Positions 462-62,686 of a stretch of 64,000 nucleotides of DNA are shown here, piece after piece. Each line of letters starts with the position of its first letter. Positions within the stretch are counted from its first letter, which is position 1. The stretch is from assembly GCA_963668695.2 (NCBI GenBank), contig CAXXLQ010000004.1, positions 3,104,001 to 3,168,000 on the forward strand, in the 5' to 3' direction. Source of the stretch: Vicinamibacteria bacterium (lineage in GTDB: Bacteria > Acidobacteriota > Vicinamibacteria > Marinacidobacterales > Marinacidobacteraceae). The notes below the pieces were generated by a model. That model saw only the letters and a program-made list of their open reading frames with translations, was not told the DNA's origin and did no database searches. Both the position numbers and the translations under genes were made by a program.

Positions 462-988
462 GCAGCCGGTGGTGGAACCCGGGTGAGCGCCGCCGGCCAG
501 TTCTCCCGGTGGGGGCGAGGCCCAGTTCTCCCGGTGGGGCCAGTCCTCCCGGTGGGGGCCCGGCTGACAAGGCGCGTGAGGGAGGAGCCCCCACCGGGAG
601 AACTGGCCCGGGTGTATTCCGACTGAAACGCAACGATGAGCGGCGCGAAGCGACGCGGGAACAGCCGGTGGTGGAACCCGGGTGAGCGCCGAGGCCGGCC
701 CCCCCGGGAGGAACTGCCAGCGGCTGACGTGAGGGAGGAGCCCCCACCGGGAGAACTGGGCCGTTCTCCGACGTGGGTTTCATCACCGGTTGTTTGGCCG
801 GGATGGATCGCCGGCCGAACGCCGCCTGGGTTTCATCACCGGTTGTTTGGCCGGGATGGATCGCGGGCCGAGCCCCCACCGGGAGAACTGGGCCGCGCGG
901 GTTCCATTACAGGCTGTTTGGCCGGGATGGATCGCCGGGCGAGCCCCCACCGGGAGAACTGGGCCGCCTGGGTTTCACCACCGGCTGC
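462..988. mobile_element. MITE-like family A, composite locus 1 with about 8 copies of the 18-nt unit
   Basis: Ends are TA-GCAGCCGGTGG...CCACCGGCTGC-TA, with internal modules shared with the other 11 loci. The right end overlaps the ptsI stop codon. Confidence 0.85.
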
Positions 989-2754
989 TAGTCCCCGGCT
1001 TCGCTCCCCTCCCGGACCGCCCGGAGCACCCGGGCCCGGACCCGGCGCGAAGTCGTCAGCCGGACGCTCTGTTGAGCTATTTCCTCAGCCCTCCGAGTGT
1101 CCTGAATGGCGATCAGGCGCTTCATTTCGGGAATCGCGTTCGGGCTCATCGAGAACGTCCGCACTCCAAAGCCAAGCAGCAGGGGAATCATGAGCGGCTC
1201 GGCGGCCACCTCGCCGCAGACAGCGAGCGGCAGGCCACTGCGACGGCAGACCCGGGTTACGAAGCGGACAGTGCGCAGGAGCGCCGGATGGAACGGGTCG
1301 CTGAAGTGCGCTACCCGTTCGTTCGCCCGGTCCACGCCAAACAGATACTGCATCAGGTCGTTCGTTCCGATGCTGAGGAATTCCGCCTCCTGCCCCAGCA
1401 GATCCGCGGTCGCTGCCGCCGAGGGCACTTCCAGCATGGCTCCCACCGGCACTTCGCGGAACGGAACATCCCGGTGGCGGAGCGCCCGGATCGCCGCCCG
1501 GACATGGGTCTTCGCGGCCCTGAATTCCTCGAGTCCGCCCACCATCGGGAACATCAACTGGACCTTTCCGTGGACGGCGGCACGCAGTACGGCCCGGATC
1601 TGAGTCTCGAAGATCCCCGACGCCAGCACGAGCAGCCGGATACCGCGCAAGCCGAGCGCCGGATTGAGTTCAGGGGCGCGACCGATGTCCGTCGCGCTCA
1701 GATCGAAGGCCCGGATCACCAAAGGATGCGGATCGAGAGCCTCGGCGAGATCCCGGTAGATGCGGAACTGTTCCTCCTCGGACGGGATCTCCTGGACCGC
1801 GATCCGTTCGGTGCGGAAGAGGCCGACTCCCTCGGCGCCATTGCGGCGGACGAGCTCGATCTCCCCCGGTTCGTCCATATTCGCCATCAGGACGACGCGC
1901 TCGCCGTTTGCGGTTCGGGCCAGGTCCGCGGTGGCGGCCAGCAGACGACGGCGGCGCTCACGCTCCCTCCCCCGCTTCTTCCGGTATTCGACAACGGTTT
2001 CCGGCGCGGGATTCACCACCACGAGGCCCTCAAAACCGTCGACGACGACCGGCAGGTCGGTGTGAAGGTGGTCGAGAAGTCCGGGTATCCCGGTGACGCA
2101 CGGAACATCGTGTGTCCTTGCCAGGATGGCCGTGTGGTACGTCGGCCCACCTGCCTCCATGACGACGCCCAGGATCTTGCTCCAGTCCAGTTCTGCGGTA
2201 TCCGACGGGCGAAGGTCGTCGGCTGCGACTACGTGCCGGCGTTCCCAGCGCTCCAAGCCGGGCCTCGTGGCCCCACCAAGGTTTTGGAGCACCCGCCCGC
2301 CTACATCCGCGATGTCTCCCTTCCGCTGACGCAGGTACTCGTCGGCCAGCCCGTCGAACACCGCCTCGAGCTCTCTCAGCACGGTGCGCACCGCCCATTC
2401 CGCATTCACCCGCTCTGACCGGATCACCTCCTCCACCCGTCCGACCAGCAGCGGATCGGCGAGCATCAGGCGCTGCGCTTCAAAAAGATACGCCGGGTCC
2501 TGCCCCAGGGCCCGACGGGTGGATTCGCGGATTTCGCGGAGCTGCTCCGCCGCGCGATCACGGGCCTTTCGGAAGCGGCGGATCTCGCGGCCGATCTCCC
2601 TTTGGCTGATTTCCACCCGGAACACCGGAACGGCCCGTCGCTCGAACACGATCGTCGGCGCTACGCAAATGCCGGGCGCGGCGGGTTCCCCGCGCAGTAC
2701 GGTCTCTCCCGCACGTGTCCGCACGGAATCGGTTCGGGACGCGGGCACCATCAT
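988..2754 (-). CDS. ptsI: Phosphoenolpyruvate-protein phosphotransferase (PTS enzyme I)
   Basis: GGPTYHTAILART phospho-His motif, EGVGLFRTE, ELNPALGLRGIR, SIGTNDL, CGE. Confidence 0.96.
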   Translation of the reverse strand: MMVPASRTDSVRTRAGETVLRGEPAAPGICVAPTIVFERRAVPVFRVEISQREIGREIRRFRKARDRAAEQLREIRESTRRALGQDPAYLFEAQRLMLADPLLVGRVEEVIRSERVNAEWAVRTVLRELEAVFDGLADEYLRQRKGDIADVGGRVLQNLGGATRPGLERWERRHVVAADDLRPSDTAELDWSKILGVVMEAGGPTYHTAILARTHDVPCVTGIPGLLDHLHTDLPVVVDGFEGLVVVNPAPETVVEYRKKRGRERERRRRLLAATADLARTANGERVVLMANMDEPGEIELVRRNGAEGVGLFRTERIAVQEIPSEEEQFRIYRDLAEALDPHPLVIRAFDLSATDIGRAPELNPALGLRGIRLLVLASGIFETQIRAVLRAAVHGKVQLMFPMVGGLEEFRAAKTHVRAAIRALRHRDVPFREVPVGAMLEVPSAAATADLLGQEAEFLSIGTNDLMQYLFGVDRANERVAHFSDPFHPALLRTVRFVTRVCRRSGLPLAVCGEVAAEPLMIPLLLGFGVRTFSMSPNAIPEMKRLIAIQDTRRAEEIAQQSVRLTTSRRVRARVLRAVREGSEAGD

Positions 2755-3059
2755 GGCGCATCACCAAGCCGGGGCCCGTCCGATTCAGGGTGCGGAGGAT
2801 CCCCGATTCCGCCCCTGACCAGTCGCGTCAAGGCTTCGAGCGCCGCCATTGCTTCACGCCCGGAAGTGTGAATCCGCAGCCGGCGCCCCTTCCCGGCAGC
2901 AAGAAACAGGAGACCCAGGATGCTCTTCCCATCGATGGTGGTCTCGCCCCGGGTTACTGTCACCACGGCGTCGTAGCGCGTCGCCGTCTTCACAAAGCGG
3001 GCCGCCGCGCGCGCGTGCATGCCTAGCGGGTTCGTGACCAGGACCACCCGCTCCGGCAC
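2751..3059 (-). CDS. ptsH: HPr family phosphocarrier protein
   Basis: GMHARAAA (His15) and DGKSILGLL (Ser46) motifs. Confidence 0.95.
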   Translation of the reverse strand: MPERVVLVTNPLGMHARAAARFVKTATRYDAVVTVTRGETTIDGKSILGLLFLAAGKGRRLRIHTSGREAMAALEALTRLVRGGIGDPPHPESDGPRLGDAP

Positions 3060-3086
3060 GGTCCCTCCCCGACGATTCCCCCGGAA

Positions 3087-3578
3087 TCAGTCCTGGGTCG
3101 AGCCGGGCTGATCCTGCGGATCCGCTTCGGCCGCTTCCTCTGATTCTTCGCGCGCCGGCGCGGGGCCGAGTCCGCCGCCGAGCAATTCGGAAGCGAGGTA
3201 GATGTTCTCCTTGCCCTGATAGAGAGCCGCCCGCGCCGCCTCCGCCGGACCCACCTGTTCTTCCTCACGGATCGAAACGAGGCGAATGAGCATGGGAAGG
3301 TTCACCCCCGTCACCACTTCCACCCGGCCTTCCTCAAGTAGGCTGAGTGCCAGATTGGAAGGCGTCCCCCCGAACATGTCCGTCAGGATTACCGACCCAT
3401 CACCCCCGGAAACCCGGCCGACTGCGGTCACGATGGCCCGCTGCGCATCCTCCGGGGAATCGTGCCAACCGATGGAAACGCTGGTGGCGTTCGGAATGTC
3501 CTCCCCCGTAATCATCTCCGCAGCGGCTACCAGCTCGCGCGACAGCTGGCCGTGCGTAACCACGACAATCCCAATCAT
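3087..3578 (-). CDS. PTS EIIA component, mannose/fructose family
   Basis: IGIVVVTHG, ILTDMFGGTPSN, VTGVNLPML. Confidence 0.93.
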   Translation of the reverse strand: MIGIVVVTHGQLSRELVAAAEMITGEDIPNATSVSIGWHDSPEDAQRAIVTAVGRVSGGDGSVILTDMFGGTPSNLALSLLEEGRVEVVTGVNLPMLIRLVSIREEEQVGPAEAARAALYQGKENIYLASELLGGGLGPAPAREESEEAAEADPQDQPGSTQD

Positions 3579-3611
3579 CGGAAGCGAGTATCCGGGAGCC
3601 GCCGCGCCTGG

Positions 3612-5947: not shown

Positions 5948-5954
5948 GACGTGC

Positions 5955-21600: not shown

Positions 21601-22235
21601 TGTCCGATGACGCTGACTCCGCCGCGCACCCGGTCTCCCGGACGTACCGTGAGCCGGGCGCCGGCAGGTAGTAGAAGATCGGTCCGTGACCCGAAACGGA
21701 TGAGCCCGAAGCGTTCACCCATCCCCAGGCGGTCCCCAACGCGCACGCGGCAAACGATGCGCCGGGCGACAACACCGGCGATCTGGCGAACCCGGACCGT
21801 GCCCCGCTCGGTCGTCATCTCCAATTCGTTCCGTTCGTTCCGTTCGGCCGCGTCTTTCCGGAACGCCGCCTTGAACGCCCCTTCACGGTAGCGCACCGCG
21901 AGCACCCGGCCCGCCGTCGGAGCGCGGTTGATGTGCACGTCGAAGATCGAGAGAAAAATGCTCACCCGCTGCGTCTCCGCGTCTCCCTCTTCAGCCCGGC
22001 CCACCTCGGTGACCCTGCCGTCGGCAGGAGCGAGGATTGCATGGGCGTCATTCGGGGTACGCCTCTCCGGATCCCGGAAGAAAAAGGCGCAGAAACCGGC
22101 GCCAGCCAACAACACCCAGCCGGCCCACGAAAGGACGTCGACGCCGGCTACGCGAGCCGCAGCGAACAAGGCGACGGCGACGGCGAGCGGGGCCACCACG
22201 AAGACCCGGCCCTCCGGAGCGATCGGCAGTCTCAC
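21591..22235 (-). CDS. psd: Phosphatidylserine decarboxylase
   Basis: FFRDPER, APADG, IFLSIFDVHINRAP, FGLIRFGSRTD (GS cleavage site). Confidence 0.95.
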   Translation of the reverse strand: MRLPIAPEGRVFVVAPLAVAVALFAAARVAGVDVLSWAGWVLLAGAGFCAFFFRDPERRTPNDAHAILAPADGRVTEVGRAEEGDAETQRVSIFLSIFDVHINRAPTAGRVLAVRYREGAFKAAFRKDAAERNERNELEMTTERGTVRVRQIAGVVARRIVCRVRVGDRLGMGERFGLIRFGSRTDLLLPAGARLTVRPGDRVRGGVSVIGQWE

Positions 22236-22274
22236 GCGCCTATCGGGCAGTCTGCCGCAGAGAGAGTCGGCTCA

Positions 22275-22508
22275 ACAGTCTGTGGTGGAACTCGCGTGAG
22301 CGCCGAGAGCGGGGAGGCGCCCGGCTGACAAGGCGCGCGAGGGAGGAGCCCCCACCGGGAGAACTGGCCCGAGTGTATTTCGACCGAAGCGCAACGCAGA
22401 GTGCCGCAAAGCGCCAGTTCTCCCGGTGGGGGGCGGTTCAGCCGGGATGCATCGCCGCTCGAGCCCCCACCGGGAGAACTGGGCCGCGTGAGTTTCACCA
22501 CCGGCTGT
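22275..22508. mobile_element. MITE-like family A, locus 2 (three 18-nt units)
   Basis: ACAGTCTGTGG...CCACCGGCTGT-TA; near-identical reverse complement of 61477-61711. Confidence 0.85.
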
Positions 22509-22518
22509 TAGCAGCCGC

Positions 22519-22764
22519 TCAAGAGGACGTCGCAAGCGCGGCAATCTGGTCCTTCAGGGCCAGTTTGCGCTTCTTCATCACCGCCGCCTCGTGCTGCTGG
22601 CGGGGCGAGAGGTGCCCGTCCTTCGTCAGTTCTTGCAGCCGTTCGTCGAGTTCCCGGTGTCGCCGGATCAATTCCTCGAGATCGGGCATTTCCGCGGATG
22701 GGGCCATCGGGCCTGCGCCGGCCGCCGCGACGGTGTCGGTTTCGATCTGGTCTTCTTGGTTCAT
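22519..22764 (-). CDS. DUF465/YdcH-like small coiled-coil protein
   Basis: HRELDERLQEL...MKKRKLALKDQI pattern; ATG at 22764. Confidence 0.8.
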   Translation of the reverse strand: MNQEDQIETDTVAAAGAGPMAPSAEMPDLEELIRRHRELDERLQELTKDGHLSPRQQHEAAVMKKRKLALKDQIAALATSS

Positions 22765-22835
22765 GAATGCCTCCAGAATTCCGAAGCCGTTCCGCATCGG
22801 AAGCCGCTTCGGGAAAACACGGCAGTTAGTCCGTA

Positions 22836-23071
22836 ACAGCCTGTGGACAAAGTGACGTGAGCGCTGAGGCCGGTGAGGCCCAGTTCTCCGGGGGGGCCAG
22901 TCCTCCCGGGGTGGGGGCTCGGCTGACACGAAGCGCGAGGGAGGGACCCCACCGGGAGAACTGGCCTTGGTGAATTTCGACCGAAGCGCGGCGATGAGCG
23001 ACGCAAAGCGGATTGGTGTCAGCCGGGAGGTATCGCCGGCCAAACACCGGATGACTTCGTCCACAGGCTGC
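22836..23071. mobile_element. MITE-like family A, degenerate locus 3
   Basis: TA-ACAGCCTGTGGACAAAGT...ACTTCGTCCACAGGCTGC-TA; overlaps the tsaB stop. Confidence 0.8.
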
Positions 23072-23793
23072 TAAAGGGTATCGGAATGGTTGGCCAGGCC
23101 ATGGATGTCAGGATCTCGAAGATAGAGCGGTTCCAGCGTGAACTCTCCGCGTCGCGCCGCTTCGAGCCCCAACCGAAGCGCGGCCGGCGCCAAGGCTCGC
23201 TGCTCAGCCACTACCTCTACGTCCGAAGCTCCCTCCGCGATGATCTCCCGGTAGCGGGCGACAGCCGGCCCGCAAATGCGCCGCACGCGGTGCTTCGCAG
23301 CCCACCGCACGGTGTCTTGCGGCAATAGCCGGAAGGGGCCCTGCACCAGACCCTCCGGGCCGATTCCGTCGTATATGGCGGCAAACAACTCACCCCGCAG
23401 GGCATCCACGACCGCCAGCCGGCGCAGTGATGCGCCGTTCGTAGCCGCGTCGGCGTACGCCGCCGCGTCCAGACTCGAGACGCCGACAGCCCGAATCCCC
23501 GCCGCCAGAGCGAACCCCTGTGCGGTAGCAAGGCCGATCCGGAGACCCGTGAACGAGCCGGGGCCTCGCGTCGCAACCAGCATCGCGAGCTCGCCGTTTT
23601 CCAGCTTCGCCTGCTCCAGGGCCTCACGGATCGCGGGGAGCAAACTGCGAGAGTGCCGATTCGAAGGTTCGAAGGTCTGAACAACCTCTCCGGCCACGGC
23701 TGACCCGACATCTACGAACCCAAGGGCGACGCTGCCGAGCGTGCCGGTCGTATCGAGGGCCAGCACCGGGCCGGAGATCTGCTCTCCGCGCAC
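23071..23793 (-). CDS. tsaB: tRNA threonylcarbamoyladenosine biosynthesis protein TsaB (start uncertain)
   Basis: VLALDTT, HSRSLLP, GPGSFTGLRIG, DALRGE, EPLYLR. Confidence 0.92.
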   Translation of the reverse strand: MRGEQISGPVLALDTTGTLGSVALGFVDVGSAVAGEVVQTFEPSNRHSRSLLPAIREALEQAKLENGELAMLVATRGPGSFTGLRIGLATAQGFALAAGIRAVGVSSLDAAAYADAATNGASLRRLAVVDALRGELFAAIYDGIGPEGLVQGPFRLLPQDTVRWAAKHRVRRICGPAVARYREIIAEGASDVEVVAEQRALAPAALRLGLEAARRGEFTLEPLYLRDPDIHGLANHSDTL

Positions 23794-24196: not shown

Positions 24197-24223
24197 GGCC
24201 AGTTCTCCCGGTGGGGGCCTGCA

Positions 24224-29500: not shown

Positions 29501-29562
29501 CCGCTGCCCATCGTCCGGCCGCCCGCGAAGCCCCAGGCGCAGCCATACACTCCCGCCAGTTA

Positions 29563-30117
29563 ACTGCCTGTGGACAAAGTCATGTGGCCCAGTTCTCCCG
29601 GTGCGGGCCTCGGTGCCCACCCCACTTCATCCACAGGCAGTTAACAGCCCGTGGTGAAACCCAGGCGGCGTTCGGCCGGCGATCCATCCCGGCCAAACAA
29701 CCGGTGATGAAACCCAGGCGGCGTTCGGCCGGCGATCCATCCCGGCTGAACCGCGTCGCTTCGCGCCGCTCATCGTTGCGTTTCGGTCGAAATACACCCG
29801 GGCCAGTTCTCCCGGTGGGGGCTCCTCCCTCACGCGCCTTGTCAGCCGGACCCCCACCGGGAGAACTGGGCCTCGCCCCCACCGGGAGGACTGGCCAACC
29901 TCGGCACTCACCCGGGTTCCAACACAGGCTGTTCACCGCGTCGCTGCGCGCCGCTCATCGTTGCGTTTCGGTCGAAATACACTCGGGCCAGTTCTCCCGG
30001 TGGGGGCTCCTCCCTCACGCGCCTTGTCAGCCGGACCCCCACCGGGAGAACTGGGCCTCGCCCCCACCGGGAGGACTGGCCAACCTCGGCGCTCACCCGG
30101 GTTCCAACACAGGCTGT
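29563..30117. mobile_element. MITE-like family A, composite locus 4 (mini-element 29563-29641 plus tandem/duplicated copies)
   Basis: TA-flanked ends, internal TA junction at 29642-29643, seven 18-nt units. Confidence 0.85.
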
Positions 30118-30121
30118 TAAC

Positions 30122-31105
30122 GTGCTGACGAACTGGCGCTGCCGGATGACTCTCATCGCCATCGCGGCGGGGATGGTCGTGCTTCCCGCCTGCGATCACG
30201 AACGGGGGCGGCCCATGGCGCTCGCAACCGGCACCACCGCGGGCGTCTACTACCCGCTGGGCGGGGCGATGGCGAGCCGTTGGACGCGCGACCTCCCCGG
30301 CGTCGTGGTCAAGGCGGAGGTCAGCGCCGGCTCGGTGACGAATCTCATCCAGGTCGCCAAGGGCGAAAGTGACATCGGCTTTGGACAAGCAGATGCGGTG
30401 GCGGACGCAATTCGCGGGACCGGCCGTTTTCCTGAACCCCTGCCCCTCGCGGTTCTCGGCCGCATCTATCCCAACATCGTGCATTTATTGAGTGTCGAAG
30501 GCCGCGGCGTGCACTCGGTAGGCGACCTTAGAGGGAAGCGAGTGTCCCTTGGGCCTCCCGGATCCGGGAACGAGGTGACCGCGAGAAATGTGCTCCGCGC
30601 GGTGGGAATCGCCGAAGAGGATTTCCGGGTACGCCAGATGAACTACAACCAGAGCATCAACGGCCTCAAGGACGGTACCGTCGACGCCGTTTTTCTCGCC
30701 GCCGGACTGGGCGTATCGTCGGTGGTCGAATTGGGTCTTACGCGGGACCTGGTGCTTGTCCCCTTCACTCCCGAAGAGATCGTTGCGGTCGAGACGGCAA
30801 ACGCCGCGTACCAGGGAATCGAGGTGCCGCCGGGCGTCTATCGCGGGGTGGACGTTCCGACGCTCACCCCCTCGCTTTGGAACATGCTCTTCGTACATCG
30901 CGACCTCCCCGCCGATGTCGCCAAGCGCCTGGCCGCCTCGCTCCTCGCCGGGCGCGAGGAGTTCCGCTCCGTCACCCGAAACGCCGAGTTCATCCAGGTT
31001 GACAGCCTCGCGGAGGTAGGGAATCTGCCACTCCACCCAGGCGCCAGAGCGTTCTACGGAGAAGAGCGTAGGCGCATCGGCGGTGCGCCCGGGAGCCTGC
31101 CCTGA
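30122..31105 (+). CDS. TAXI-family TRAP transporter solute-binding subunit
   Basis: ATGTTAGVYYPLG, GSVTN, DLRGKRVSLGPPGSG, PLHPGA; lipobox-like LPAC. Confidence 0.93.
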   Translation: MLTNWRCRMTLIAIAAGMVVLPACDHERGRPMALATGTTAGVYYPLGGAMASRWTRDLPGVVVKAEVSAGSVTNLIQVAKGESDIGFGQADAVADAIRGTGRFPEPLPLAVLGRIYPNIVHLLSVEGRGVHSVGDLRGKRVSLGPPGSGNEVTARNVLRAVGIAEEDFRVRQMNYNQSINGLKDGTVDAVFLAAGLGVSSVVELGLTRDLVLVPFTPEEIVAVETANAAYQGIEVPPGVYRGVDVPTLTPSLWNMLFVHRDLPADVAKRLAASLLAGREEFRSVTRNAEFIQVDSLAEVGNLPLHPGARAFYGEERRRIGGAPGSLP

Positions 31106-34009: not shown

Positions 34010-34351
34010 ACAACCTTTGGACAAAGTGACGTGAGCGCCGAGGACGGCCAGTCCTCCCGGTGGGGGCGAGGCCCAGTTCTCCCGGTGGGGCCAGTCCTCC
34101 CGGTGGGGGCCCGGCTGACAAGGCGCGTGAGGGAGGAGCCCCCACCGGGAGAATTGGCCCGGGTGGTTTTCGACCGAAACGCAACGATGAGCGGCGCGCA
34201 GCGACGGGGTCAGCCGGGATGCATCGCCGGCCGAGCCCCCACCGGGAGAACTGGGCCGCGTGGGTTTCATCACCGGCTGTTCGGCCGGGATGCATCGCCG
34301 GCCGAGCCCCCACCGGGAGAACTGGGCCGCGTCACTTTGTCCACAGACTGC
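34010..34351. mobile_element. MITE-like family A, locus 5 (six 18-nt units, including a tandem pair)
   Basis: ACAACCTTTGGACAAAGTGAC...GTCACTTTGTCCACAGACTGC. Confidence 0.85.
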
Positions 34352-38167: not shown

Positions 38168-41125
38168 ATGTCCGTACTCGAGCGATTCGCCTCTCCGCTG
38201 CGAAGCCGCGACGCCGCCGTCCGTGTCAAGGCTGTTCAGAAACATCCCCCGGAGGACACCGCAGCGCTGGCGGAGCTCGCCCGTTCAGATCCGGATGCGC
38301 GGGTCCGCAAGGAGGCAGTGCGCCGCATCGAGGCGCCGCGCGTCCTGCTTGACCTCACGGACAGCGCCGGCGATGACGCCACCCGGCGTCTCGCCCGATC
38401 GCGCGCGGAATCGCTACTCGTCAAGATCGCTGCCGACGATCGGGATCTCGGAGAATCGCAGCGCGCGCTCGGACTCCTTGCCCCGCCGCGCGCGGTGGCC
38501 GAAGTGGCGTGCCGGGCGCGCTTCGAGGCGGTTCGCTTCGACGCACTCGCGCGCCTGACCACCGGACCGGCGGCGGGCGCGGAACGGGACGGTGCGGTCG
38601 CCACGGTGGCCGGAAAGGCCGCCGACCCTGCCCTTCGGAGTCAGGCTCTCGAGGCGATCGTCAGTCCGGCCGGCCTGCTTCAGGTGGCGATTTCCGCCGA
38701 GGATCGCGAGAGTGCCCAAGCGGCGGTCCGGCGGTTGGAAGATCCCGAGTCGCTGCTCGCCGCGGCAAGCAACGCCAGTTTCAAGGGGGTCCGCCGGCTC
38801 GCCCGGCGTCGAGCCGACGAACGCCTGCCACCAGATCATCCCGAGCGGGTGCGGTCGCGCGAGAAGGCCCTTGGTGGCCTGTTGGAACGCCTGGCCGAGG
38901 CCGACCCGGCCAACTCCGGTCAGAATGCGACCCTTCTCGCCGAAGCGGACGAGGTCGCGGCCTCGGGCCCCGCCGCCCCGGAATTCATCACCCGGCTGGC
39001 GGCGCTGCGCGAGACCGTTCAGGGCGGGGGCGCCCCTCACCCGCGCGCCGCGCGTCTGTTGATCCCGGAAGCAACCCTTCCGGCATTCAATCAGTCGGCG
39101 CCCCTCGAAGACACGGAACCACCTCCGGACCTCTCACCGGAGATCGAGGAAATCTTCACCCGGCTGGAAGATCCGGGGGATGGCCTGAGCCTGGACGAGG
39201 TGGACTCCGCCGAGCGGGAATGCGGCCGGCTGCTCGAGAGGATTGCGCGCGCCGGCGCCGCTCGCTCCCGACTCCGGGCGGCGGCGGACGGCGCCCGGGC
39301 ACGGGCGCTGCAGCGCAAGAAGGCCCGAATTCGGGAATTCGAGACGGTCGAACTGGCGGACCACGCCGCACTGCTTGCGAAGTCACTCGAAAACCCCCGC
39401 TCCGGCCCGGAACTCGCACAGGCTCGCCGCGAACTGACGCGTCTCGTGCGGCGGTTCGAGCGCCTGGAACCAGCGGAGACACCGGACACCGAGCGGTTCC
39501 GCAACGCTGCCCGCGGCGTAGAGACCGCGCTCAGCAGCGCCGAAGCGGCACGAAAGGACCACCTCCGACAGTCCGAGGAGCGGATTGCCGCGCTCGAGGA
39601 GCGACTCGGGACGCTGGAGTCATCCGAATCTTTCCCACTCGAGGAAGGTGAGGCGGTGCTTCGCGAACTCGGCGGCCTCCGCAGCAACGCGTCTCTCTGG
39701 CGGCAGGTCGGGCCCGAGCGGCAGGCACGTTTTCAGCGCTCCCAAGCTGCACTCATCCCGAGGCTGCGGGAGGCGCGGGAGATTCGGGAATGGCGTCACT
39801 GGTCGAATCTTGAAGAGCAGTCGGCACTCATTCGCCGAGCCCGGGCGCTCATGGAAGACGACGACCTCCAGCGCGTGGAGCGGGAACTCACGCTTCTCGA
39901 ACGCGCGTGGCACAAGGCCCGGCACACGGGACGCGACCGGGGTCAGGAACTCTGGGAAGAATGGGGGAAGGTCCGGGAAGCACTGCTCGAGCGCGTCGGC
40001 CCGTTGCGCGAAGCCGCGGAGCGCGAACTGGCCCTGCAACTGGAGGGGCTCCGGGCGCTCGCGGAAAAGGCGGAGGAGATCGCCGACGGCAAGGATCCGC
40101 GCCAAGGCGCCGAGATGCGCGCCCTGATGCCCGCCTGGCGAGAGCGCGCCCGGGGAATCGGGAAACGCTCCGAACGCTTGTGGAAGCGGTTTCGCGCTGC
40201 CAACGACCGATATTTCACCGAACTCAAGGTACTGGGAAAGAAACGGTACGAAGAGTTCGCCGCGAACATCCCGATCCGGGACGAACTGATCGGCCGCGCC
40301 CGGGCGCTCTTCGACCAAACGGACGCCGCGGCGGTGCGCGAAGCGGTGCGTGATCTGATGCGGGAGTGGAAGGAGTCGCCGCCCGTCCCGCGCAAGGAAA
40401 GCGAGCGCCTCTGGGACGAATTCCGGACCGCCTGCGACACCGCGCGGGATCGCCTCCGGGAGAAACCGGAAAACCCGAACTCGGGCTCCAGCGAAGCCCA
40501 GGAACACTCTCCGCCGAGGGAAGCGGAAGCCGACCTCCGCACCCGCATCGCGGAACTGGCTGCCCAACCGGCCGGAGAGCGGCGCGACGCCGCGATTTCG
40601 CTTTGGGATGACTATCGGCGGATTACCCGCTCCACCGACCGATTGGCCCGGGAAACCGACCGCGCGTTGCTCGACGTTCTGCGGGAGACCTTCGAAGCGG
40701 ATCCCGAGACCTTTGCCGGCACCCGCCTGGACCAGGAGCAACTCGCCGCGCGTCTGGAAGGCTTGCTGGAAGCGGTCGAGACGCTGGCGGCACCTCGCGC
40801 CTCCGCGCCGTCGGACGCCGGAGTCGTCGGCATTGTGGAACATCTGCAACGCACTCTGCAGGCGGGACGGGCGGCGGACCGCGGGGCAGTCCTGCGGGAA
40901 GACGCACAGGCCGCGACCCAGATTCTGGAGCGAGCCCGCGCTGCCGGTCCGGCGCTCGCCGACCCCACGGTGGAAACCGTAAAGCGGATCGAAGGGCTGG
41001 CCCGGAAGGTCATTGCCCGGGCGCCATCAGCCGAAGAGCAGCCACGGGACCGCGGGCGCGGAGACCGCGGGCGCGAGGACCGCGGGCGCGGGCGTACTCG
41101 CGGGCGACGCCCACCGAGGCCTTAG
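38168..41125 (+). CDS. DUF349 domain-containing helical protein
   Basis: HEAT-like N-terminus, repeated W...G....E.LW.RF..A motifs; ATG at 38168. Confidence 0.82.
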   Translation: MSVLERFASPLRSRDAAVRVKAVQKHPPEDTAALAELARSDPDARVRKEAVRRIEAPRVLLDLTDSAGDDATRRLARSRAESLLVKIAADDRDLGESQRALGLLAPPRAVAEVACRARFEAVRFDALARLTTGPAAGAERDGAVATVAGKAADPALRSQALEAIVSPAGLLQVAISAEDRESAQAAVRRLEDPESLLAAASNASFKGVRRLARRRADERLPPDHPERVRSREKALGGLLERLAEADPANSGQNATLLAEADEVAASGPAAPEFITRLAALRETVQGGGAPHPRAARLLIPEATLPAFNQSAPLEDTEPPPDLSPEIEEIFTRLEDPGDGLSLDEVDSAERECGRLLERIARAGAARSRLRAAADGARARALQRKKARIREFETVELADHAALLAKSLENPRSGPELAQARRELTRLVRRFERLEPAETPDTERFRNAARGVETALSSAEAARKDHLRQSEERIAALEERLGTLESSESFPLEEGEAVLRELGGLRSNASLWRQVGPERQARFQRSQAALIPRLREAREIREWRHWSNLEEQSALIRRARALMEDDDLQRVERELTLLERAWHKARHTGRDRGQELWEEWGKVREALLERVGPLREAAERELALQLEGLRALAEKAEEIADGKDPRQGAEMRALMPAWRERARGIGKRSERLWKRFRAANDRYFTELKVLGKKRYEEFAANIPIRDELIGRARALFDQTDAAAVREAVRDLMREWKESPPVPRKESERLWDEFRTACDTARDRLREKPENPNSGSSEAQEHSPPREAEADLRTRIAELAAQPAGERRDAAISLWDDYRRITRSTDRLARETDRALLDVLRETFEADPETFAGTRLDQEQLAARLEGLLEAVETLAAPRASAPSDAGVVGIVEHLQRTLQAGRAADRGAVLREDAQAATQILERARAAGPALADPTVETVKRIEGLARKVIARAPSAEEQPRDRGRGDRGREDRGRGRTRGRRPPRP

Positions 41126-41305
41126 CAGCCTGTGGACAAAGTCACGCGGCGTTCGAGCGGCGATGCATCCCGGCTGAACCGCGTCGCTTCGCGTCGCTCA
41201 TCGTTGCGTTTCGGTCGGAATACACCCGGTATTCCTCCCTCACGCGCCTTGTCAGCCGGGCGCCTCACCGCTCTCGGCGCTCACGCCACTTTATCCACAG
41301 GCTGC
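41125..41305. mobile_element. MITE-like family A, locus 6: simplest 181-bp copy with no 18-nt unit
   Basis: TA-GCAGCCTGTGGACAAAGT...ACTTTATCCACAGGCTGC-TA (17/18 TIR); the left TA lies in the stop codon of the DUF349 gene. Confidence 0.88.
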
Positions 41306-41418
41306 TAGCCAGCAGCCAGCGGACACGATCACCCGACCCCCTCCCGCCGGCGATGCGCCGGCGATGCATCGTTCGAGGGAGTCCGCCGGCGCGGCCGGCA
41401 AGCCGCTCAATCTCCCGC

Positions 41419-43804: not shown

Positions 43805-43845
43805 TGCCGGTCTGAAGGCTCCCACCGGGAGGACTGGCCGGCGCG
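43805..43845. repeat. REP-like family D hairpin interrupted by an 18-nt unit (43820-43837)
   Basis: TGCCGGTCTGAAGGC-[TCCCACCGGGAGGACTGG]-CCGGCG. Confidence 0.7.
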
Positions 43846-47769: not shown

Positions 47770-48329
47770 CAGCCTATGGTGAAACCCAGGTGAGCGCCGA
47801 GGTCGGCCAGTCCTCCCGGTGGGGGAGGCGCCCGGCCGACACGGCGGGCGGCGGGAAGGACCCCCAGTGCGGGGGGGCCTTTCCGGCCGGGAGCCCGGCG
47901 TTCAGCGTCATCCGGACGGTGGCGTGGTACACGCCTTTCGCTGCGCTTTGCGCAGCGGTGCCGGCCCCCACCGGGAGAACTGCCCAGAGGTCGGCGTTCC
48001 AAGCCGTCCCCGCGCTTGAAGCGCGGTGGAGTACTGCCGAGCGCGCAAAAACAATGGCAGCGAACTTTGTTCGCTGCCCGCGTGACCGGGGGGAAAGTGT
48101 GAAAGGGGGGCACCCCCCCCCCTTTCACAAATCAACAATGACCAATCGGAACTCGCCGCCGCGCGCCGCAGGCGCGCAAGGGAGTTTCGATTGCCGGCGC
48201 GAAGCGCCGGGCGGTCCCCGGACGGGGCCCCAACTCCAAGCAGGACTACGACCGAAAGCTATTCCAGATCAAGGCCCCGTCCGGGGACCGCTCGACCCTG
48301 ATTGCCGCGTGGGTTTTGCCACAGGCTGT
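47769..48329. mobile_element. MITE-like family A ends enclosing family D and family B repeats (locus 7)
   Basis: TA-ACAGCCTATGGTGAAACCC...GGGTTTTGCCACAGGCTGT-TA; the left end overlaps the rsmB stop. Confidence 0.8.
48080..48301 (+). repeat. Structured repeat family B, copy 3
   Basis: Homologous to 26517-26732 with compensatory stem changes. Confidence 0.8.
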
Positions 48330-50001: not shown

Positions 50002-50478
50002 GTGACCTCTCCTCCCGCCGACGCCACTCAGGTTTCGATCCGCGTCCGCTATGCCGAGACCGATCAGATGGGGGTGGGCTACCACGGCGCCTACCTTCCC
50101 TGGCTTGAGGTAGCGCGGACCAGTTGGTTGCGGAAACACGCGCTGCCCTACCGGGAGCTGGAGGCGAGCGGCTTCCACTTTCCGGTGATCGAAGTGCGGT
50201 GCCGCTATCTGCGGCCGGTCCGCTACGACGACGACCTCATCGTGGAGGCCCAGGCGTTCCCCTACCGGCGGTCGGGTATCGGCTTTGCCTATCGAATCCT
50301 GCGCCCTTCCGATGGGACGCTGGTCGCCACTGCCGAAACGCGGCATGCAACGGTTGGGACGGACGGGCGGGCGCGCCGCTTGCCCCAATCGGTCCGCGGA
50401 GCGTTAACAGCCTGTGGTGAAACCCACGTGAGCGCCGAGACGGGCGAGGCCCAGTTCTCCCGGTGGGGGTCGGGCTGA
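50002..50478 (+). CDS. Acyl-CoA thioesterase (YbgC/4HBT family); C-terminus reads into a MITE; start uncertain
   Basis: RVRYAETDQMGVGYH..Y..WLEVAR, YLRPVRYDD. Confidence 0.88.
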   Translation: MTSPPADATQVSIRVRYAETDQMGVGYHGAYLPWLEVARTSWLRKHALPYRELEASGFHFPVIEVRCRYLRPVRYDDDLIVEAQAFPYRRSGIGFAYRILRPSDGTLVATAETRHATVGTDGRARRLPQSVRGALTACGETHVSAETGEAQFSRWGSG

Positions 50479-50807
50479 CAAGGCGCGCAAGGGAGGAATA
50501 CCGAGTGTATTTCGACCGAAGCGCAACGCAGAGCACCGCGAAGCGGGGCGGTTCAGCCGGGATGGATCGCCCGTCGAACGCCGGGTGGGTTTTGCCACAG
50601 GCTGTTAACAGCCTGTGGTGGAACCCGGGTGAGCGCCGAGAGCGGGGAGGCTCAGTTCTCCCGGTGGGGGTCCGGCTGACAAGGCGCGTGAGGGAGGAAT
50701 ACCGGGTGTATTTCGACCGAAACGCAACGATGAGCGGCGCGAAGCGACGCGGTTCAGCCGGGATGGATCGCCGGCCAGAACGCCGCGTGGGTTTCACCAC
50801 CGGCTGT
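50407..50807. mobile_element. MITE-like family A, locus 8: two tandem copies (50407-50605, 50608-50807) sharing one TA
   Basis: TA-ACAGCCTGTGG...CAGGCTGT-TA-ACAGCCTGTGG...CCGGCTGT-TA. Confidence 0.88.
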
Positions 50808-55364: not shown

Positions 55365-55437
55365 GCGGGCGTATCTCAGTTGGCAGAGTACGAGCTTCCC
55401 AAGCTCGGTGTCGCGGGTTCGAGCCCCGTCGCCCGCT
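55365..55437 (+). tRNA. tRNA-Gly (anticodon CCC)
   Basis: Acceptor stem GCGGGCG/CGCCCGC, anticodon arm CGAGC-TTCCCAA-GCTCG, T arm GCGGG-TTCGAGC-CCCGT, discriminator T. Confidence 0.95.
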
Positions 55438-57974: not shown

Positions 57975-58724
57975 TTGATGAACGATTCCTCGCAGGGAGA
58001 ACCACCCGAGCCGCTTGCGGAAGCCCGCGGGGCGAATGGCGCCGCCGCCGGAAATCCCACGGATCCGCCTGAGTCTCCGGAAGGGGGCGGTTCCACCGAG
58101 ATCGACGACCTGCGAGACCGGGTCACCGCCCTGAACCAGGAACTGGCCGATGCCAAGGATCTCGCCCGTCGGGCGCAGGCCGACCTCGCAAACGTCCGCC
58201 GGCGCTCCCAAAACGAGCGTGCCGAGTTCCGGTCCCGCGCTACCGCAGAGATCTGCTCCGCCCTGTTGCCAGTGCTGGACGATCTCCACCGCGCCGTTAC
58301 CGAAGTGGACAAAACGACCGTGCGCTGGGAAGAGGACGGCGGCGGCGATCCGGCGGCGACCGTGGTCAAGGGGCTACACCAAGGGATCCGGTTGGTTCTG
58401 CGCCGGTTCCAGGACGCTCTGAAGCGCCAGGGACTACTTGAGATTGAAGCAGACGGTGCGCCTTTCGATCCGCGGCTGCACGAGGCCGTCCATGAAATCC
58501 CCGCCGGGCCGGGACAGCGCGAGGGCGACGTGGCTGAGGTGCTCCGCCGGGGCTACCTCCTCGACGGCCGGGTGATCCGCCCGGCCACCGTGATCGTCGC
58601 CGCGGCATCCGCTGAGCGACCGGGCAACCCCGAGGAAACGGACGAAGGCGCAGACGAAGACGACGGCGGGTCGGCGACCGAACCGGCGCCGCCGGGATCC
58701 GCAACCGAACCACTGCCCGCCTGA
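57975..58724 (+). CDS. grpE: Nucleotide exchange factor GrpE
   Basis: RAQADLAN.RRR, LLPVLDDL.RA, FDPRLHEAV, GY.L.GRVIRPA.V.V. Confidence 0.95.
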   Translation: MMNDSSQGEPPEPLAEARGANGAAAGNPTDPPESPEGGGSTEIDDLRDRVTALNQELADAKDLARRAQADLANVRRRSQNERAEFRSRATAEICSALLPVLDDLHRAVTEVDKTTVRWEEDGGGDPAATVVKGLHQGIRLVLRRFQDALKRQGLLEIEADGAPFDPRLHEAVHEIPAGPGQREGDVAEVLRRGYLLDGRVIRPATVIVAAASAERPGNPEETDEGADEDDGGSATEPAPPGSATEPLPA

Positions 58725-58732
58725 AGAACTCC

Positions 58733-59947: not shown

Positions 59948-59963
59948 CGGGGTTCCACGGCTA

Positions 59964-60417
59964 GCAGCCTGTCGATAAAGTGGCGTGAGCGCCGAGAGCG
60001 CCAGTTCTCCCGGTGGGGGCGAAGCCCAGTTCTCCCGGTGGGGGTCCGGCTGACCAGGCGCGCGAGGGAGGAGCCCCCACCGGGAGAACTGGCCCGGGTG
60101 TATTTCGAACGAAGCGCAACGATGAACGAGGCGAAGCGGAGTGTTTCAGCCGGGATGGATCGCCGCTCGAGCAGCCTGTGGTGGAACCCGGGCGAGCGCC
60201 GAGGCCGGTGAGGCGCCCGGCTGACAAGGCGCGTGAGGGAGGAGCCCCCACCGGGAGAACTGGCCCGGGTGTATTTCGACCGAAACGCAACGCAGAACGT
60301 AGCGAAGCGGAGTGGTTCAGCCGGGATGGATCGCCGGCCGAACGCCGGCTGGGTTTCACCACAGGCTGCTAGCCCCCACCGGGAGAACTGGGCCGCGAGA
60401 CTTTGTCCACCGGCTGC
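59964..60417. mobile_element. MITE-like family A, locus 9: one copy (60171-60369) nested inside another
   Basis: Outer ends GCAGCCTGTCGATAAAGT...ACTTTGTCCACCGGCTGC; inner ends GCAGCCTGTGGTGGAACCC...GGGTTTCACCACAGGCTGC. Confidence 0.85.
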
Positions 60418-60556
60418 TCGTCCTGACCTTTCAGCCACCGACCCGGGGCGGACCGCAACCCGGCGGCATCGACCGGCAGAAAATGGCGTCCGAAGACGGC
60501 CGACGTACCCGCTCGATCTGCACGGGCCCGGCCCGCTTACCGGCTGGGAAGGGCTC

Positions 60557-61477
60557 GTGGTGGACGAGAACGAGTTCCTCGGCGCCGCGGAAACGTCGGC
60601 AACGGGCGATCGGGTGCGGCTCTGGTTTGGCTCGGCGGGCGCCCGGCGACGGCTGGCGGCTCGTCTCGACGCGCTGGTCGAGTCCAAAAGGCCAGCCGCG
60701 GCGGCCCGAGAATCCGAATTCCCGCTGCACGGCGTCACCGTCCGGCATGCGCCTCCCGAACCGGCACGCGACTGGACGGCACGATATCGCGAGCTTTTTT
60801 CCGGGGTGCGGGCGGCTGGATTCTTCATTCACCCACCCCACATTCCGGCGGTGCCCGGGTTCCGGTCGCTCCTTCTCACACCCGGACTGGCCTTCGGCAC
60901 CGGAGTCCACGCCACGACCCGCATGGTTCTGGAATCGCTCGAAGAACACCTCAGCGCCCGCCAGTCGCGGACGCGCGTTCTCGACATCGGGACCGGATCG
61001 GGAATTCTTGCCGTCGCGGCCGCGCTGCTCGGAGCAAGGACGGTTGTGGGCCTCGACCAGGACCCCACGGCGATTCGCGCTGCGGAAGAAGCCGCGGCGG
61101 CGAACAGCCTGGTTGGCAGGATCCTGTTCCGTGCCGGAGACTATCGGGATCCGGACCTGGCGGCCGATCTGCACCCGCTGGCTCCCCGCGGCTTCGATGT
61201 AATCCTCGCCAATCTGTCGGCCAAACCCCTGACGGATTTTTGGGAATTCGCCGCGCCCCAGCTGCGGTCGCGAGGCCGGATTCTCATCTCGGGATTCCTC
61301 CGTGAAGAGGCGTCCCGCGTATTGGGCGCCTTCCCCGGACGATCGGTCAGATTGGCGGAAATCCGAATGGAGCTACCCGAACACCCCGAAACCGACACCT
61401 GGGTCGCGGCCGCGCTGGAGCGCCGAGAGAGCGAACGTTCCGCGCCGGAAGACCGAGCCGCCGCCACTCGCTTCTAG
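60557..61477 (+). CDS. prmA: Ribosomal protein L11 methyltransferase (start uncertain, may be further upstream)
   Basis: PGLAFGTGVHATT, VLDIGTGSGILA, DVILANL, ISG; located between dnaJ and rsmE. Confidence 0.92.
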   Translation: MVDENEFLGAAETSATGDRVRLWFGSAGARRRLAARLDALVESKRPAAAARESEFPLHGVTVRHAPPEPARDWTARYRELFSGVRAAGFFIHPPHIPAVPGFRSLLLTPGLAFGTGVHATTRMVLESLEEHLSARQSRTRVLDIGTGSGILAVAAALLGARTVVGLDQDPTAIRAAEEAAAANSLVGRILFRAGDYRDPDLAADLHPLAPRGFDVILANLSAKPLTDFWEFAAPQLRSRGRILISGFLREEASRVLGAFPGRSVRLAEIRMELPEHPETDTWVAAALERRESERSAPEDRAAATRF

Positions 61478-61711
61478 CAGCCTGTGGTGAAACTCACGCG
61501 GCCCAGTTCTCCCGGTGGGGGCTCGAGCGGCGATGCATCCCGGCTGAACCGCCCCCCCACCGGGAGAACTGGCGCTTTGCGGCGCTCTGCGTTGCGCTTC
61601 GGTCGAAATACACTCGGGCCAGTTCTCCCGGTGGGGGCTCCTCCCTCGCGCGCCTTGTCAGTCGGGCGCCTCCCCGCTCTCGGCGCTCACGCCAGTTCCA
61701 CCACAGGCTGC
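61477..61711. mobile_element. MITE-like family A, locus 10, between the prmA stop and the rsmE start
   Basis: CTA-GCAGCCTGTGG...CCACAGGCTGC-TAG-C-ATG. Confidence 0.88.
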
Positions 61712-61715
61712 TAGC

Positions 61716-62441
61716 ATGGCCGCTGCGCGCCGCTTCCTCGCTCCCGAAGCGGCCGGCAGTTCCGAACTCCGGCTCGCCGCCTCGGAATCGCACCACCTGC
61801 TGCGCGTTCTCCGCCTGCCCCCGGGCGCGGCGGTCGAAGTCTTCGACGGCGTTGGCAACGCCTTCGCGGCGCGATTTCTCCGGGCCGACCAAGAAGGCCG
61901 CTGCCTCCTCCGGCGCGGTGAGGCGCTGGCCACCAGGGAACCCGCCATCCGCCTCACGGTGGGCGTTGCAGTTCCCAAAGGGGACGGCCTGACCGGGATC
62001 GTGCGGCAGCTCGCGGAGATCGGAGCAGCCTCGATCACCCCGCTCGAGACCGACCGTTCGGAAGGGCGCGCGTCCCCTGCCCGGGTCGAGCGTTGGCGCG
62101 CGGCCGCCCTCGCGGGGACCCGCCAGTCCGGTCGGGCGACTGTTCCCGCGGTCAGCGCACCGGCCCCGTTCGAAAACTGGATCCGGGATCCGCTGCCCGA
62201 AGAGCGCTGGATCGCCTCGCCCCCTTCCGCAGTCGAGACTTTCTCCGCCGTTCCGAAACCCGCACCGGCAAGGGACCGGGTGCTCGCCATCGGCCCCGAG
62301 GGGGGCTTCTCAGCCGGGGAACTCAAGGACGCCTGCCGGCACGGGTTCCGGCGCCTCGACCTCGGAGCACGCATCCTGCGCACCGGGACAGCCTCGGTGG
62401 TGGCGGCGGCCGCGCTGTTGCGATCGCACGGTTGGCAATGA
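61716..62441 (+). CDS. rsmE: 16S rRNA m3U1498 methyltransferase
   Basis: HHLLRVLR, EIG, QSGR, IGPEGGFS, LGARILR..TA. Confidence 0.95.
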   Translation: MAAARRFLAPEAAGSSELRLAASESHHLLRVLRLPPGAAVEVFDGVGNAFAARFLRADQEGRCLLRRGEALATREPAIRLTVGVAVPKGDGLTGIVRQLAEIGAASITPLETDRSEGRASPARVERWRAAALAGTRQSGRATVPAVSAPAPFENWIRDPLPEERWIASPPSAVETFSAVPKPAPARDRVLAIGPEGGFSAGELKDACRHGFRRLDLGARILRTGTASVVAAAALLRSHGWQ

Positions 62442-62487
62442 CGGCCTTGGCGCCCGGAGCACCCGCCGCAACGCGGAGTGCGGGTTA

Positions 62488-62686
62488 GCAGCCTGTGGTG
62501 AAACCCAGGCGGCCCAGTTCTCCCGGTGGGGGCTCGGCCGGCGATCCATCCCGGCTGAACCGCGTCGCTTCGCGCCGCTCATCGTTGCGTTTCGGTCGAA
62601 ATACACTCGGTATTCCTCCCTCACGCGCCTTGTCAGCCGGGCGCCTCACCGGCCTCGGCGCTCACCCGGGTTCCACCACAGGTTGC
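62488..62686. mobile_element. MITE-like family A, locus 11 (one 18-nt unit)
   Basis: TA-GCAGCCTGTGG...CCACAGGTTGC-TA; 199 bp = 181 + 18. Confidence 0.88.

Follow-up and report, generated by a model that had tools for sequence, protein, structure and literature searches.

The locus described here raises the question of what kind of element an 18-nt DNA sequence can be that recurs again and again, at precise positions, within hairpin-forming repeats. The stretch analysed (the window) comprises 64,000 nt of the genome of an uncultured, sponge-associated Vicinamibacteria bacterium (contig CAXXLQ010000004.1; C4:3104001-3168000 of the source genome, designated G000). This genome has 4.10 Mb, 67% G+C and 4 contigs and is 91.7% complete with 9.3% contamination; its closest named relatives are metagenome-assembled genomes of Candidatus Marinacidobacterium sp. 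Our results indicate that the 18-mer CCAGTYCTCCCGGTGGGG, in the following called the unit, probably forms the core of a non-autonomous mobile DNA cassette of very small size, a derived insertion that lands at a few short G+C-rich sites in hairpin-forming repeats. The unit probably has a mobility of its own, but most of its copies would have spread second-hand.

The window contains 34 exact copies of the unit, where 0 are expected and where 0 of 100 shuffles gave any match. With up to three mismatches allowed there are 41 matches against 0.44 expected, in line with the about 40 copies counted by hand in the first-pass annotation. Genome-wide, G000 has 1444 exact units, 723 on the plus and 721 on the minus strand; these counts are inflated by a few percent due to near-identical duplicate stretches in the assembly. 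Position 6 is T in 1288 of the exact units and C (the T6C form) in 156. Relative to the T form, 1288 units have no mismatch, 278 have one, 65 two and 48 three, and a reversed-pattern control gave 10 matches at three mismatches. The 1631 recognisable units of 18 nt make up about 0.7% of the 4.1 Mb of G000.

The units are not scattered over genes and spacers in the manner of DNA uptake sequences; nearly all of them lie in a few repeat contexts. When units with at most two mismatches and full flanks were clustered by their flanks, 1567 of 1630 fell into the 40 largest of 96 clusters. The main host, family A, is a 189-nt miniature inverted-repeat transposable element (MITE) with long terminal inverted repeats, with CTAG at each end of the insertion and only one CTAG at the corresponding place in relatives. 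As single-stranded DNA the empty family A element is predicted to form one long hairpin (-65.1 kcal/mol, z = -9.5). The other hosts are small hairpin repeats resembling repetitive extragenic palindromic (REP) sequences, namely family D and the clusters c8, c9 and c15. With the 1631 units cut out in silico, 464 nearly complete family A copies can be aligned over their whole length with an empty copy, for which the unit-free copy at window positions 41122-41310 served as the reference. In these 464 copies the units occupy five sites (in the junctions, [18] stands for the unit):

S1, consensus position 42, plus strand: 136 units; CCGG-(T/C/G)-GAGG when empty, CCGG-[18]GC-GAGG when filled, net +19
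S2, consensus position 49, plus strand: 257 units in 154 copies
S3, consensus position 80, minus strand: 207 units; CCGG-TAT-TCCT when empty, CCGG-G[18]GC-TCCT when filled, net +18
S4, consensus position 126, plus strand: 54 units; GCG-(AC/GA/GC)-G when empty, GCG-[18]GG-G when filled, net +18
S5, consensus position 160, minus strand: 175 units; CGGC-GT-TCG when empty, CGGC-[18]GC-TCG when filled, net +18

Two minor sites in family A hold 9 units each, and about ten further sites lie in other small repeats. The five family A sites and the additional sites in family D that had been proposed from the window alone thus hold genome-wide. The proposed insertion in both orientations is true of the element overall but of no single site, as each site has one orientation in all 464 copies (S1, S2 and S4 plus, S3 and S5 minus). 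Occupancy varies widely, with 42 different combinations over the 464 copies and 121 copies without any unit. At S2 the units form tandem arrays of one to five, those with three and five units being rare. A structural rule for the target did not emerge, since the minimum free energy structure predicted for the empty MITE pairs the bases that are replaced at S1 and S3 but leaves those at S2 partly unpaired. At G000:C4:906311, 3363149 and similar positions the left flank of S1 is joined to the right flank of S4 via a single unit; these joins look like deletions by recombination between two direct units in one MITE.

The two bases that follow the unit (n = 1444) are GC in 1109 cases, GT in 92 and GG in 68, and in 157 cases the next unit follows directly. 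The cassette is best described as (G)CCAGTYCTCCCGGTGGGG plus a trailing GC, which replaces one to three resident bases and lengthens the site by 18 or 19 nt net; most often, 20 nt stand where there had been 2. The comparison of filled and empty pairs shows bases that are replaced, not duplicated, and the ends of the unit (CCAG... and ...GGGG) are not inverted repeats. Thus the earlier description as a discrete module too short for an insertion sequence (IS) or a MITE, with neither terminal inverted repeats nor target-site duplications and at precise sites in hairpin-forming repeats, is well founded. Its claim of an exact +18 insertion without target duplication stands as far as the duplication is concerned. 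The flanks, however, are not left untouched, since one to three adjacent bases normally change and the gain is +19 at S1 and for the units in family D. That the change of the touching bases goes with the unit is also apparent from the association between filled state and local polymorphism. Cramer's V between the filled state and the touching bases was 0.98-0.99 at S3, 0.86 at S5, 0.77 at S4, 0.56 at S1 and 0.51 at S2, compared with 0.03-0.37 for common polymorphisms 3-14 nt away. At S2, the empty site is followed by GC in 304 copies, and the double unit in 125 of 125.

If the fully loaded repeats were the ancestral form, the empty sites would be deletions, which would refute the insertion proposed in the first-pass annotation. 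The search for the exact unit covered 31 genomes, namely G000, 18 of its relatives within the family and 12 genomes from two sister families. It was found in all 15 genus genomes and in two of the three from other genera of the family (17 of the 18 relatives), and in none of the 12 sampled genomes of the two sister families. In a scan with a 20-mer, with one genome per species, 79 of the first 80 matches listed were in Acidobacteriota records, and one was in a 6-kb contig labelled Gammaproteobacteria. The occurrence of the unit is restricted to a single acidobacterial family from marine and sponge habitats. Two outgroup families of the order contain homologues of family A (L119 in G020 and L120 in G021), with about 78% identity over positions 20-121 and different terminal repeats. 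These homologues are contiguous at S1, S2, S3 and S5 (AATAC at S3, CGAATGC at S5), and both genomes have 0 units. Since the outgroup homologues are empty, the empty state is ancestral and the gain of the unit is derived. This makes the core of the MITE much older than the 18-mer.

Within the family, the load of units differs strongly between genomes: 1444 in G000, 675 in G004, 225 in G018, 67 in G014, 11 in G010 and 0 in G017, with 630, 588 and 88 in others, so that the genomes assembled in few contigs range from 0 to 1444 units on the same host MITE. In G010, a first look gave about 174 candidates for MITE A; 40 of them were scored, which gave 46 matches, and the ones listed were mostly full-length and empty, with only 11 units in the genome. 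The MITE can therefore spread without the unit, and the unit load is a property of the lineage.

The sites themselves also differ between lineages. G018 belongs to a different genus, a test gene being 67% identical to that of G000 at the DNA level. Its copies of this MITE have the unit at sites other than those in G000, and further repeats contain it too, with the same style of junction: GTGGC-GA-GGCG became GTGGC-[18]GC-GGCG, CTGAC-GA-GGCG became CTGAC-[18]GC-GGCG, GAGCG-AA-GCGG became GAGCG-[18]GC-GCGG, ATGC-AT-CCCG became ATGC-[18]GC-CCCG, and CGGC-AT-TCGA became CGGC-[18]GC-TCGA. Units of G018 are also found after small hairpins, in 44-nt arrays, and within the unit itself, as CCAGTTCTCCCGG[unit+GC]GGG, where the TG of the outer unit is replaced; locus L098 has a double nest. 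Loci of G018 contain this nest motif 12 times in 64.9 kb, whereas it is lacking from the loci of G001 (176 kb), G004 (160 kb) and G008 (120 kb) and from the whole of G000. (The loci L127-L206 had been chosen by a 20-mer; counts of the trailing GC in them are biased and were not used.) A history of deletions only cannot produce such nests and lineage-specific sites. Counting the sites in both genera, at least about 25 separate insertions of one sequence would be needed. Of the many independent gains that the first-pass annotation had called for, the separate origins of these sites can thus be upheld, but most of the copies could have arisen by amplification or conversion.

Changes of the unit can be followed between near-identical strains. 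G000 contains duplicate stretches (C1 = C4:304-421 kb; C3 = C4:3505-3538 kb; C4:9-130 kb = C4:3775-3904 kb) of 97.3-99.9% identity, with 267 kb aligned in total and 0.63% difference. They are probably co-assembled strain variants, which fits the contamination estimate given above. Among 62 indels of at least 8 nt between the duplicates, at least 6 comprise exactly one unit, and four of these events were inspected base by base. In event A, 358 aligned nt from 99.4%-identical stretches are identical save AGGC-GC-CCGG on one side and AGGC-[18]GT-CCGG on the other. Event B is the same change in another MITE, event C is a switch of two tandem MITEs between GGAAT-ACC and GGAGC[unit]CCC, and event D is a +19 event in family D. 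As the duplicates differ by [18] plus the adjacent base, the change of the adjacent base belongs to the event. The unit is still changing between near-identical strains. Whole MITEs were also gained or lost among G000, G004 and G001, the last of which is syntenic with and 94-95% identical to G000.

The window itself provides examples of all these states. Its units and their hosts are as follows:

466-990 (approximate bounds), no strand assigned: composite family A cluster with 7 units at 497 (plus), 522 (plus), 540 (plus, T6C), 589 (minus), 742 (minus), 874 (minus) and 945 (minus)
22283-22512, plus strand: family A copy with S1 and S2 empty and S3 (22350, minus), S4 (22414, plus) and S5 (22465, minus) filled
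22835-23050 (approximate bounds), plus strand: older family A copy with an exact unit at 22947 (minus) and decayed units at 22880 (3 mismatches) and 22897 (2 mismatches)
24199-24216, plus strand: solitary unit outside family A, in the context GATGCTGG[18]GCCTG
29560-30122, minus strand: family A cluster with 7 units at 29589 (1 mismatch), 29803 (plus), 29852 (minus), 29877 (minus, T6C), 29988 (plus), 30037 (minus) and 30062 (minus, T6C)
34020-34345, plus strand: family A copy with an extra right-end module; S1 unit 34048 (T6C), double S2 unit 34073 and 34091, S3 unit 34140 (1 mismatch), S4 empty, two S5 units 34237 and 34308
41122-41310, minus strand: family A copy without a unit at any site
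43820-43837, minus strand: unit with T6C and 1 further mismatch in a family D hairpin repeat
47807-47983, no strand assigned: units 47807 (plus, T6C) and 47966 (minus, 1 mismatch)
50404-50720, plus strand: two adjacent family A copies, the first with a single S2 unit (50451) followed by GT and with S1, S3, S4 and S5 empty, the second with an S2 unit (50652, 1 mismatch) followed by GT
60001-60391, no strand assigned: cluster with units 60001 (plus), 60026 (plus), 60075 (minus), 60246 (minus) and 60374 (minus)
61477-61711, minus strand: family A copy with units 61503 (plus), 61555 (minus) and 61619 (plus)
62488-62686, minus strand: family A copy with S5 filled (62514) and S3 empty

The filled and empty alleles pointed out in the first-pass annotation were recovered as described: the empty S2 at 22314-22329, the filled S1 with the double S2 at 497-557 and 34048-34108, the empty sites at 50441-50450 and 50541-50555, the units at 29803-29820 and 62514-62531, and the unit-free copy at 41122-41310. 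At several of these places the relatives differ. The cluster at 466-990 is largely lacking in them, window positions 521-921 corresponding to about 106 nt in G001 and 440-985 to 19 nt in G004. The MITE at 22283-22512 is wholly absent at the orthologous place in G001 and G004. That at 61477-61711 has CTAG on both sides in the window and is absent in G001, which has a single CTAG there. In place of the copy at 34020-34345, G001 has one with S1 and S2 empty and S4 filled. The family D repeat at 43820 is empty in G001 (locus L001), with CGCCGG|TCTTCAG there against CGCCGG[18]GCCTTCAG in the window. In G001 the ortholog of the MITE at 62488 shares its flanks and, nearly unchanged, its backbone, but S3 is filled, so that CTCGGTATTCC in the window contrasts with CTCGGG[18]GCTCC in G001. 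To the right of the solitary unit at 24199, synteny with G001 and G004 is lost, and these relatives do not polarise it. Public sequencing runs add two observations. A contig from run X9 joins 29631 to 30108, and the MITE cluster in between (29632-30107) is thus absent in another host population. The second comes from an RNA library (run X15), in which a contig (record 12) covers 22444-23059 with 18 gap letters and 0 other letters.

How new copies of the unit arise can be approached through its variants. Over 1679 x 18 positions the units have 552 mismatches, a per-site identity of about 0.98 (biased upward, as only matches with up to three mismatches were counted), compared with 0.869 for the backbone of family A. 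In windows of the backbone the commonest 18-nt word is present in 24% of the copies on average and in 70% at most. The high identity of the unit is a sign of youth or of constraint. The T6C form accounts for 84 of the 144 second units at S2; at S1, 38 of 181 units have it as their sole change. Family D and repeat c9 contain it as well. It is nearly lacking at the minus sites (0 of 340 S5 units, 2 of 315 S3 units), and was not among the top-listed variants of 61 S4 units. In the predicted fold of window positions 522-610, the T6C of the second S2 unit pairs perfectly with a resident GGGAGGA upstream of S3, and completion of this pairing may explain the enrichment of T6C at S1 and S2. Further variants likewise recur: C1G in 12 units of family D and 8 of c9, and the double variant A3G+G15A in 4 units of family D in G000 and at two different sites in G018. 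This recurrence of variants at unrelated sites argues for copying from resident genomic units and not from one master.

The interpretation that we favour is that new copies arise by templated copy-and-paste from resident genomic copies, neither by cut-and-paste nor from a single master gene. The 3' end at the target would use a resident unit as its template, being extended through the trailing GC, and would then return to the target one to three bases downstream. Such an event could be a template switch or a flap replacement on single-stranded or extruded repeat DNA. We prefer this over excision and insertion because no excision scars were seen, variants propagate and bases are overwritten. 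Overwritten bases are hard to reconcile with the chemistries of DDE, HUH, serine or tyrosine recombinases. Second-hand spread of a site allele could then occur through transposition of the MITE, short-tract gene conversion between MITEs and slippage, the last giving the one to five tandem units at S2. The catalyst would be neither a reverse transcriptase nor the REP-associated tyrosine transposase (RAYT) of the genus, and its activity would have to differ strongly between species of one genus. In its most far-reaching form the idea is that a DNA-writing activity swaps a dinucleotide at structured G+C-rich sites for a 20-nt cassette from a resident template, without reverse transcriptase, RAYT or classical transposase. 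We put this forward tentatively and regard it as rather doubtful.

Several points weigh against the mobility of the unit and its mode of copying as proposed here. The template switching is deduced from the junctions alone, no enzyme or intermediate having been found. The trailing dinucleotide varies: the single unit at S2 is followed by GT in 68 of 74 cases and by GC in only 6, and the unit at S4 by GG, not GC. The linkage within the backbone of family A is low (mean Cramer's V 0.34-0.35 at 1-5 nt and 0.15-0.19 beyond 10 nt), which indicates that recombination or short-tract conversion between MITE copies is frequent. Gene conversion can therefore explain the 42 occupancy combinations and the clean strain differences, the more so for the latter as the MITE is best conserved around S2. 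A microhomology of 2 nt gives weak grounds for junctions that are precise and recurrent. A strand bias between the replication arms was not seen in 8 site classes, which argues against a simple lagging-strand mechanism. Finally, the contigs of the public runs (Logan) break at repeats, so that a +18 polymorphism is not properly shown by them.

Taken further, the points on conversion lead to the view that the unit is a module of a mosaic repeat without mobility of its own, comparable to the bacterial interspersed mosaic elements (BIMEs) of E.coli and to BOX. Each filled site would then have arisen once or a few times, and the rest would be due to MITE amplification, recombination and conversion. 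The low linkage everywhere in the backbone is in line with this view, and so is the joint switch of S3 in two neighbouring tandem MITEs (event C). A decayed S5 allele of G018 is unchanged in 7 of the loci inspected and has thus travelled with the MITE; S2 acts like a locus with three alleles, GC, [18]GT and [18][18]GC; and the joins of S1 with S4 show recombination between units. Yet even so the 25 or more insertions would still be needed, with the same style of junction, in unrelated repeats, in two genera and with nesting of the unit in itself. It would also leave unaccounted for the roughly tenfold lower divergence of the unit relative to its host, the variants that cross host families and the combination of many MITEs with almost no units in G010. 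We therefore consider a purely modular origin unlikely, though it deserves more weight than the enzyme-based alternatives discussed below. That the unit is a library adapter or an error of assembly or polishing has a negligible probability, and nothing spoke for it. Exact units are present in 18 of the 31 genomes, G000 included, from different types of assembly, the stretch is present in 20 public runs from 8 studies, the depth over the repeats was hundreds of times above that of the flanks in all 4 runs mapped, and the sites are fixed within a conserved MITE. The independent support which had been asked for is thus available.

As for the enzymes named as possible writers in the first-pass annotation, none fits. 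Reverse transcriptases (RVT_1) had no match in G000, G004, G008 and G018 and were over the cut-off in G001 alone of the genomes searched; TnpB had no match over the cut-off. A further candidate is a REP/RAYT system, in which the unit would be a REP-type sequence moved by the HUH tyrosine transposase of the genus, with a recent loss of the gene in G000. A true RAYT does exist in the genus (92.5 bits with NCBIfam REP_Tyr_transpos, cut-off 80), with Y1_Tnp matches in 13 of the 15 genus relatives and in G016, and the copy number, intergenic position and stem-forming inverted pairs of the unit resemble REPs and their inverted doublets (REPINs). In addition, atypical class 3 HuH genes and high-copy structures have been described for several phyla, Acidobacteria included (PMC6006769). 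However, G000 has no Y1_Tnp match and no tblastn match to the RAYTs of three relatives, and the equivalent of the RAYT locus (L123, C4:2177401-2183400) has a gene for a hybrid histidine kinase/response regulator of 824 aa, together with 13 units in a MITE cluster. The gene is lacking in the unit-rich, few-contig genomes G004 and G018 as well and present in G010 with its 11 units. Only one of eight RAYT loci in the relatives has a unit within 1.5 kb, and the palindromes beside two of the three RAYT genes examined are unlike the unit and contain GTAG. The unit itself has neither a GTAG or CGTC head nor a fold of its own: its 21-mer gave -1.9 kcal/mol (z = 0.42), and 126 of 200 shuffles folded at least as well; inverted pairs of units are predicted to form long stems. 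Mobilisation by this RAYT is accordingly quite improbable. Even less probable, to a degree that we regard as very remote, is an origin of the unit from IS110-family (bridge-RNA) recombinases, as their footprint or by-product. Transposase genes of this family are present in all 9 unit-bearing genomes taken (those with a few-contig assembly or a match found), with 1 in G000, 5 in G001, 11 in G004, 10 in G008, 5 in G009, 2 in G010, 10 in G014, 3 in G018 and 1 in G016, and none was found in the unit-free G017. Moreover, a 458-aa IS110 element of G014 splits the unit in all three copies inspected (AGCCCCC|IS|CCACCGGGAGAACTGG; loci L229-L231, C1 around 1243137, 1347320 and 1517534), one of them in S5 of MITE A. 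An element shared by G000, G004 and G008 lies in repeat c9, 9 nt from the unit site (G000:C4:482336-483622), and one of G018 lies in another unit-hosting repeat. But the ends of the four IS110 types do not resemble the unit, which lies in the flanking target. IS110 genes also exist in the unit-free outgroups G020, G021, G022 and G026, and their number does not track the unit load (1 copy with 1444 units in G000, 10 copies with 67 units in G014). Nor does a shared-core exchange account well for an insert of 18 nt by which varied dinucleotides are overwritten. What these loci show are IS110 elements that take the unit or its host repeats as a target, not elements from which the unit is derived.

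Other origins of the unit were rejected. Among 58 tRNA and tmRNA genes the best match had 4 mismatches in 20 nt and lay downstream of tRNA-Val. High-depth stretches of more than 600 nt, considered as a parent IS, had 0 units within 300 nt, and the large repeat L124 is without a long open reading frame and without inverted ends. Words of the unit that could act as a guide in the left end of the G014 IS110 element were limited to a few 7-mers, by rough estimate no more than chance. In an Rfam search of the whole window a tRNA (55365-55437) alone reached the gathering score, and a scan of the repeat region 22200-23100 gave nothing at E <= 1. A tandem array with a repeat of about 53 nt, up to 50 self-matches and no 18-mers was also observed in G000 (C4:122000-123500 and 3896000-3897300).

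If the unit is mobile as we propose, it would be one of the smallest mobile DNA units known. To our knowledge, there is hardly any record of mobile DNA shorter than about 50 nt. We traced a single described case, the small dispersed repeats (SDRs) of Nostoc from 2008, which came without a mechanism and from one cyanobacterial family. The unit would be a second, independent system in another phylum, with a fixed cassette of 18+2 nt, overwritten bases, fixed orientation, self-nesting and subfamilies. The range from 0 to 1444 units on the same MITE across one family is a natural experiment which makes a search for the responsible gene approachable. Should a DNA-writing activity of the far-reaching kind outlined above exist, it would stand for a new class of mobility, which might be called oligonucleotide transposition, and would also explain the unsolved SDRs of cyanobacteria. 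In practical terms, the units break short-read assemblies, mark strain differences and serve as a landing pad for IS110 elements.

Of the known systems, composite repeats such as the BIMEs of E.coli and the BOX elements of pneumococci consist of a few short modules in varying number and combination. We know of no case in which such modules are written into existing elements at several sites with overwriting of target bases, and the outgroups show that the module-free form is ancestral here. Family A is a classical MITE, with its terminal inverted repeats, CTAG duplication, presence or absence between relatives and long hairpin. The unit, unlike MITEs, has no terminal inverted repeats and no target-site duplication and is well below their size. 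IS110-family elements that target REP sequences were reportedly described by Tobes and Pareja in 2006; those found here insert into the unit or the host mini-repeats and are likewise users of the repeat, not its source. REPs and REPINs are short extragenic sequences with hundreds to thousands of copies and inverted pairs forming hairpins, and are thought to be selfish (Bertels and Rainey 2011, PMC3116915). They have a conserved GTAG or CGTC tetranucleotide at one end (PMC3733652). The unit resembles them in its size of about 20 nt, its copy number and its inverted pairs. It differs in that it is not palindromic, has no such head, is not tied to RAYT and resides at fixed sites inside larger repeats and not in independent doublets.

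The closest precedent are the SDRs of Nostoc, which are alike in being mobile repeats of about 20 nt inserted precisely at specific short sites. They were reportedly described by Elhai et al. in 2008 in Genome Res 18:1484, are said to have 21-27 nt, to form hairpins and to sit inside other repeats and each other. We know of no enzyme for them. The unit shares with them the confinement to a few defined contexts, as in the 40 flank clusters and the five fixed sites described above, and the nesting in other repeats (MITE A, mini-hairpins) and, in G018 though not in G000, in itself; it does not share the hairpin. In the literature on SDR-type elements, on Marinacidobacterium and on REPs and MITEs of Acidobacteria and sponges, supplements being outside the scope, we found no description of this repeat or of this genus. 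For one of the Nostoc elements, SDR5, a later report places the insertion between the third and fourth base of HIP1 (PMC4390886). SDRs are confined to one lineage (PMC5861425), and so is the unit. In addition to its phylum, the unit differs from the SDRs by its unrelated sequence, its shorter core of 18 nt, the one to three target bases that are overwritten and the fixed GC that is added. It is thus to be filed with the SDRs as its nearest kind, from which it is set apart by its phylum, by a sequence that forms no hairpin and by the rule of 20 nt in place of 2.

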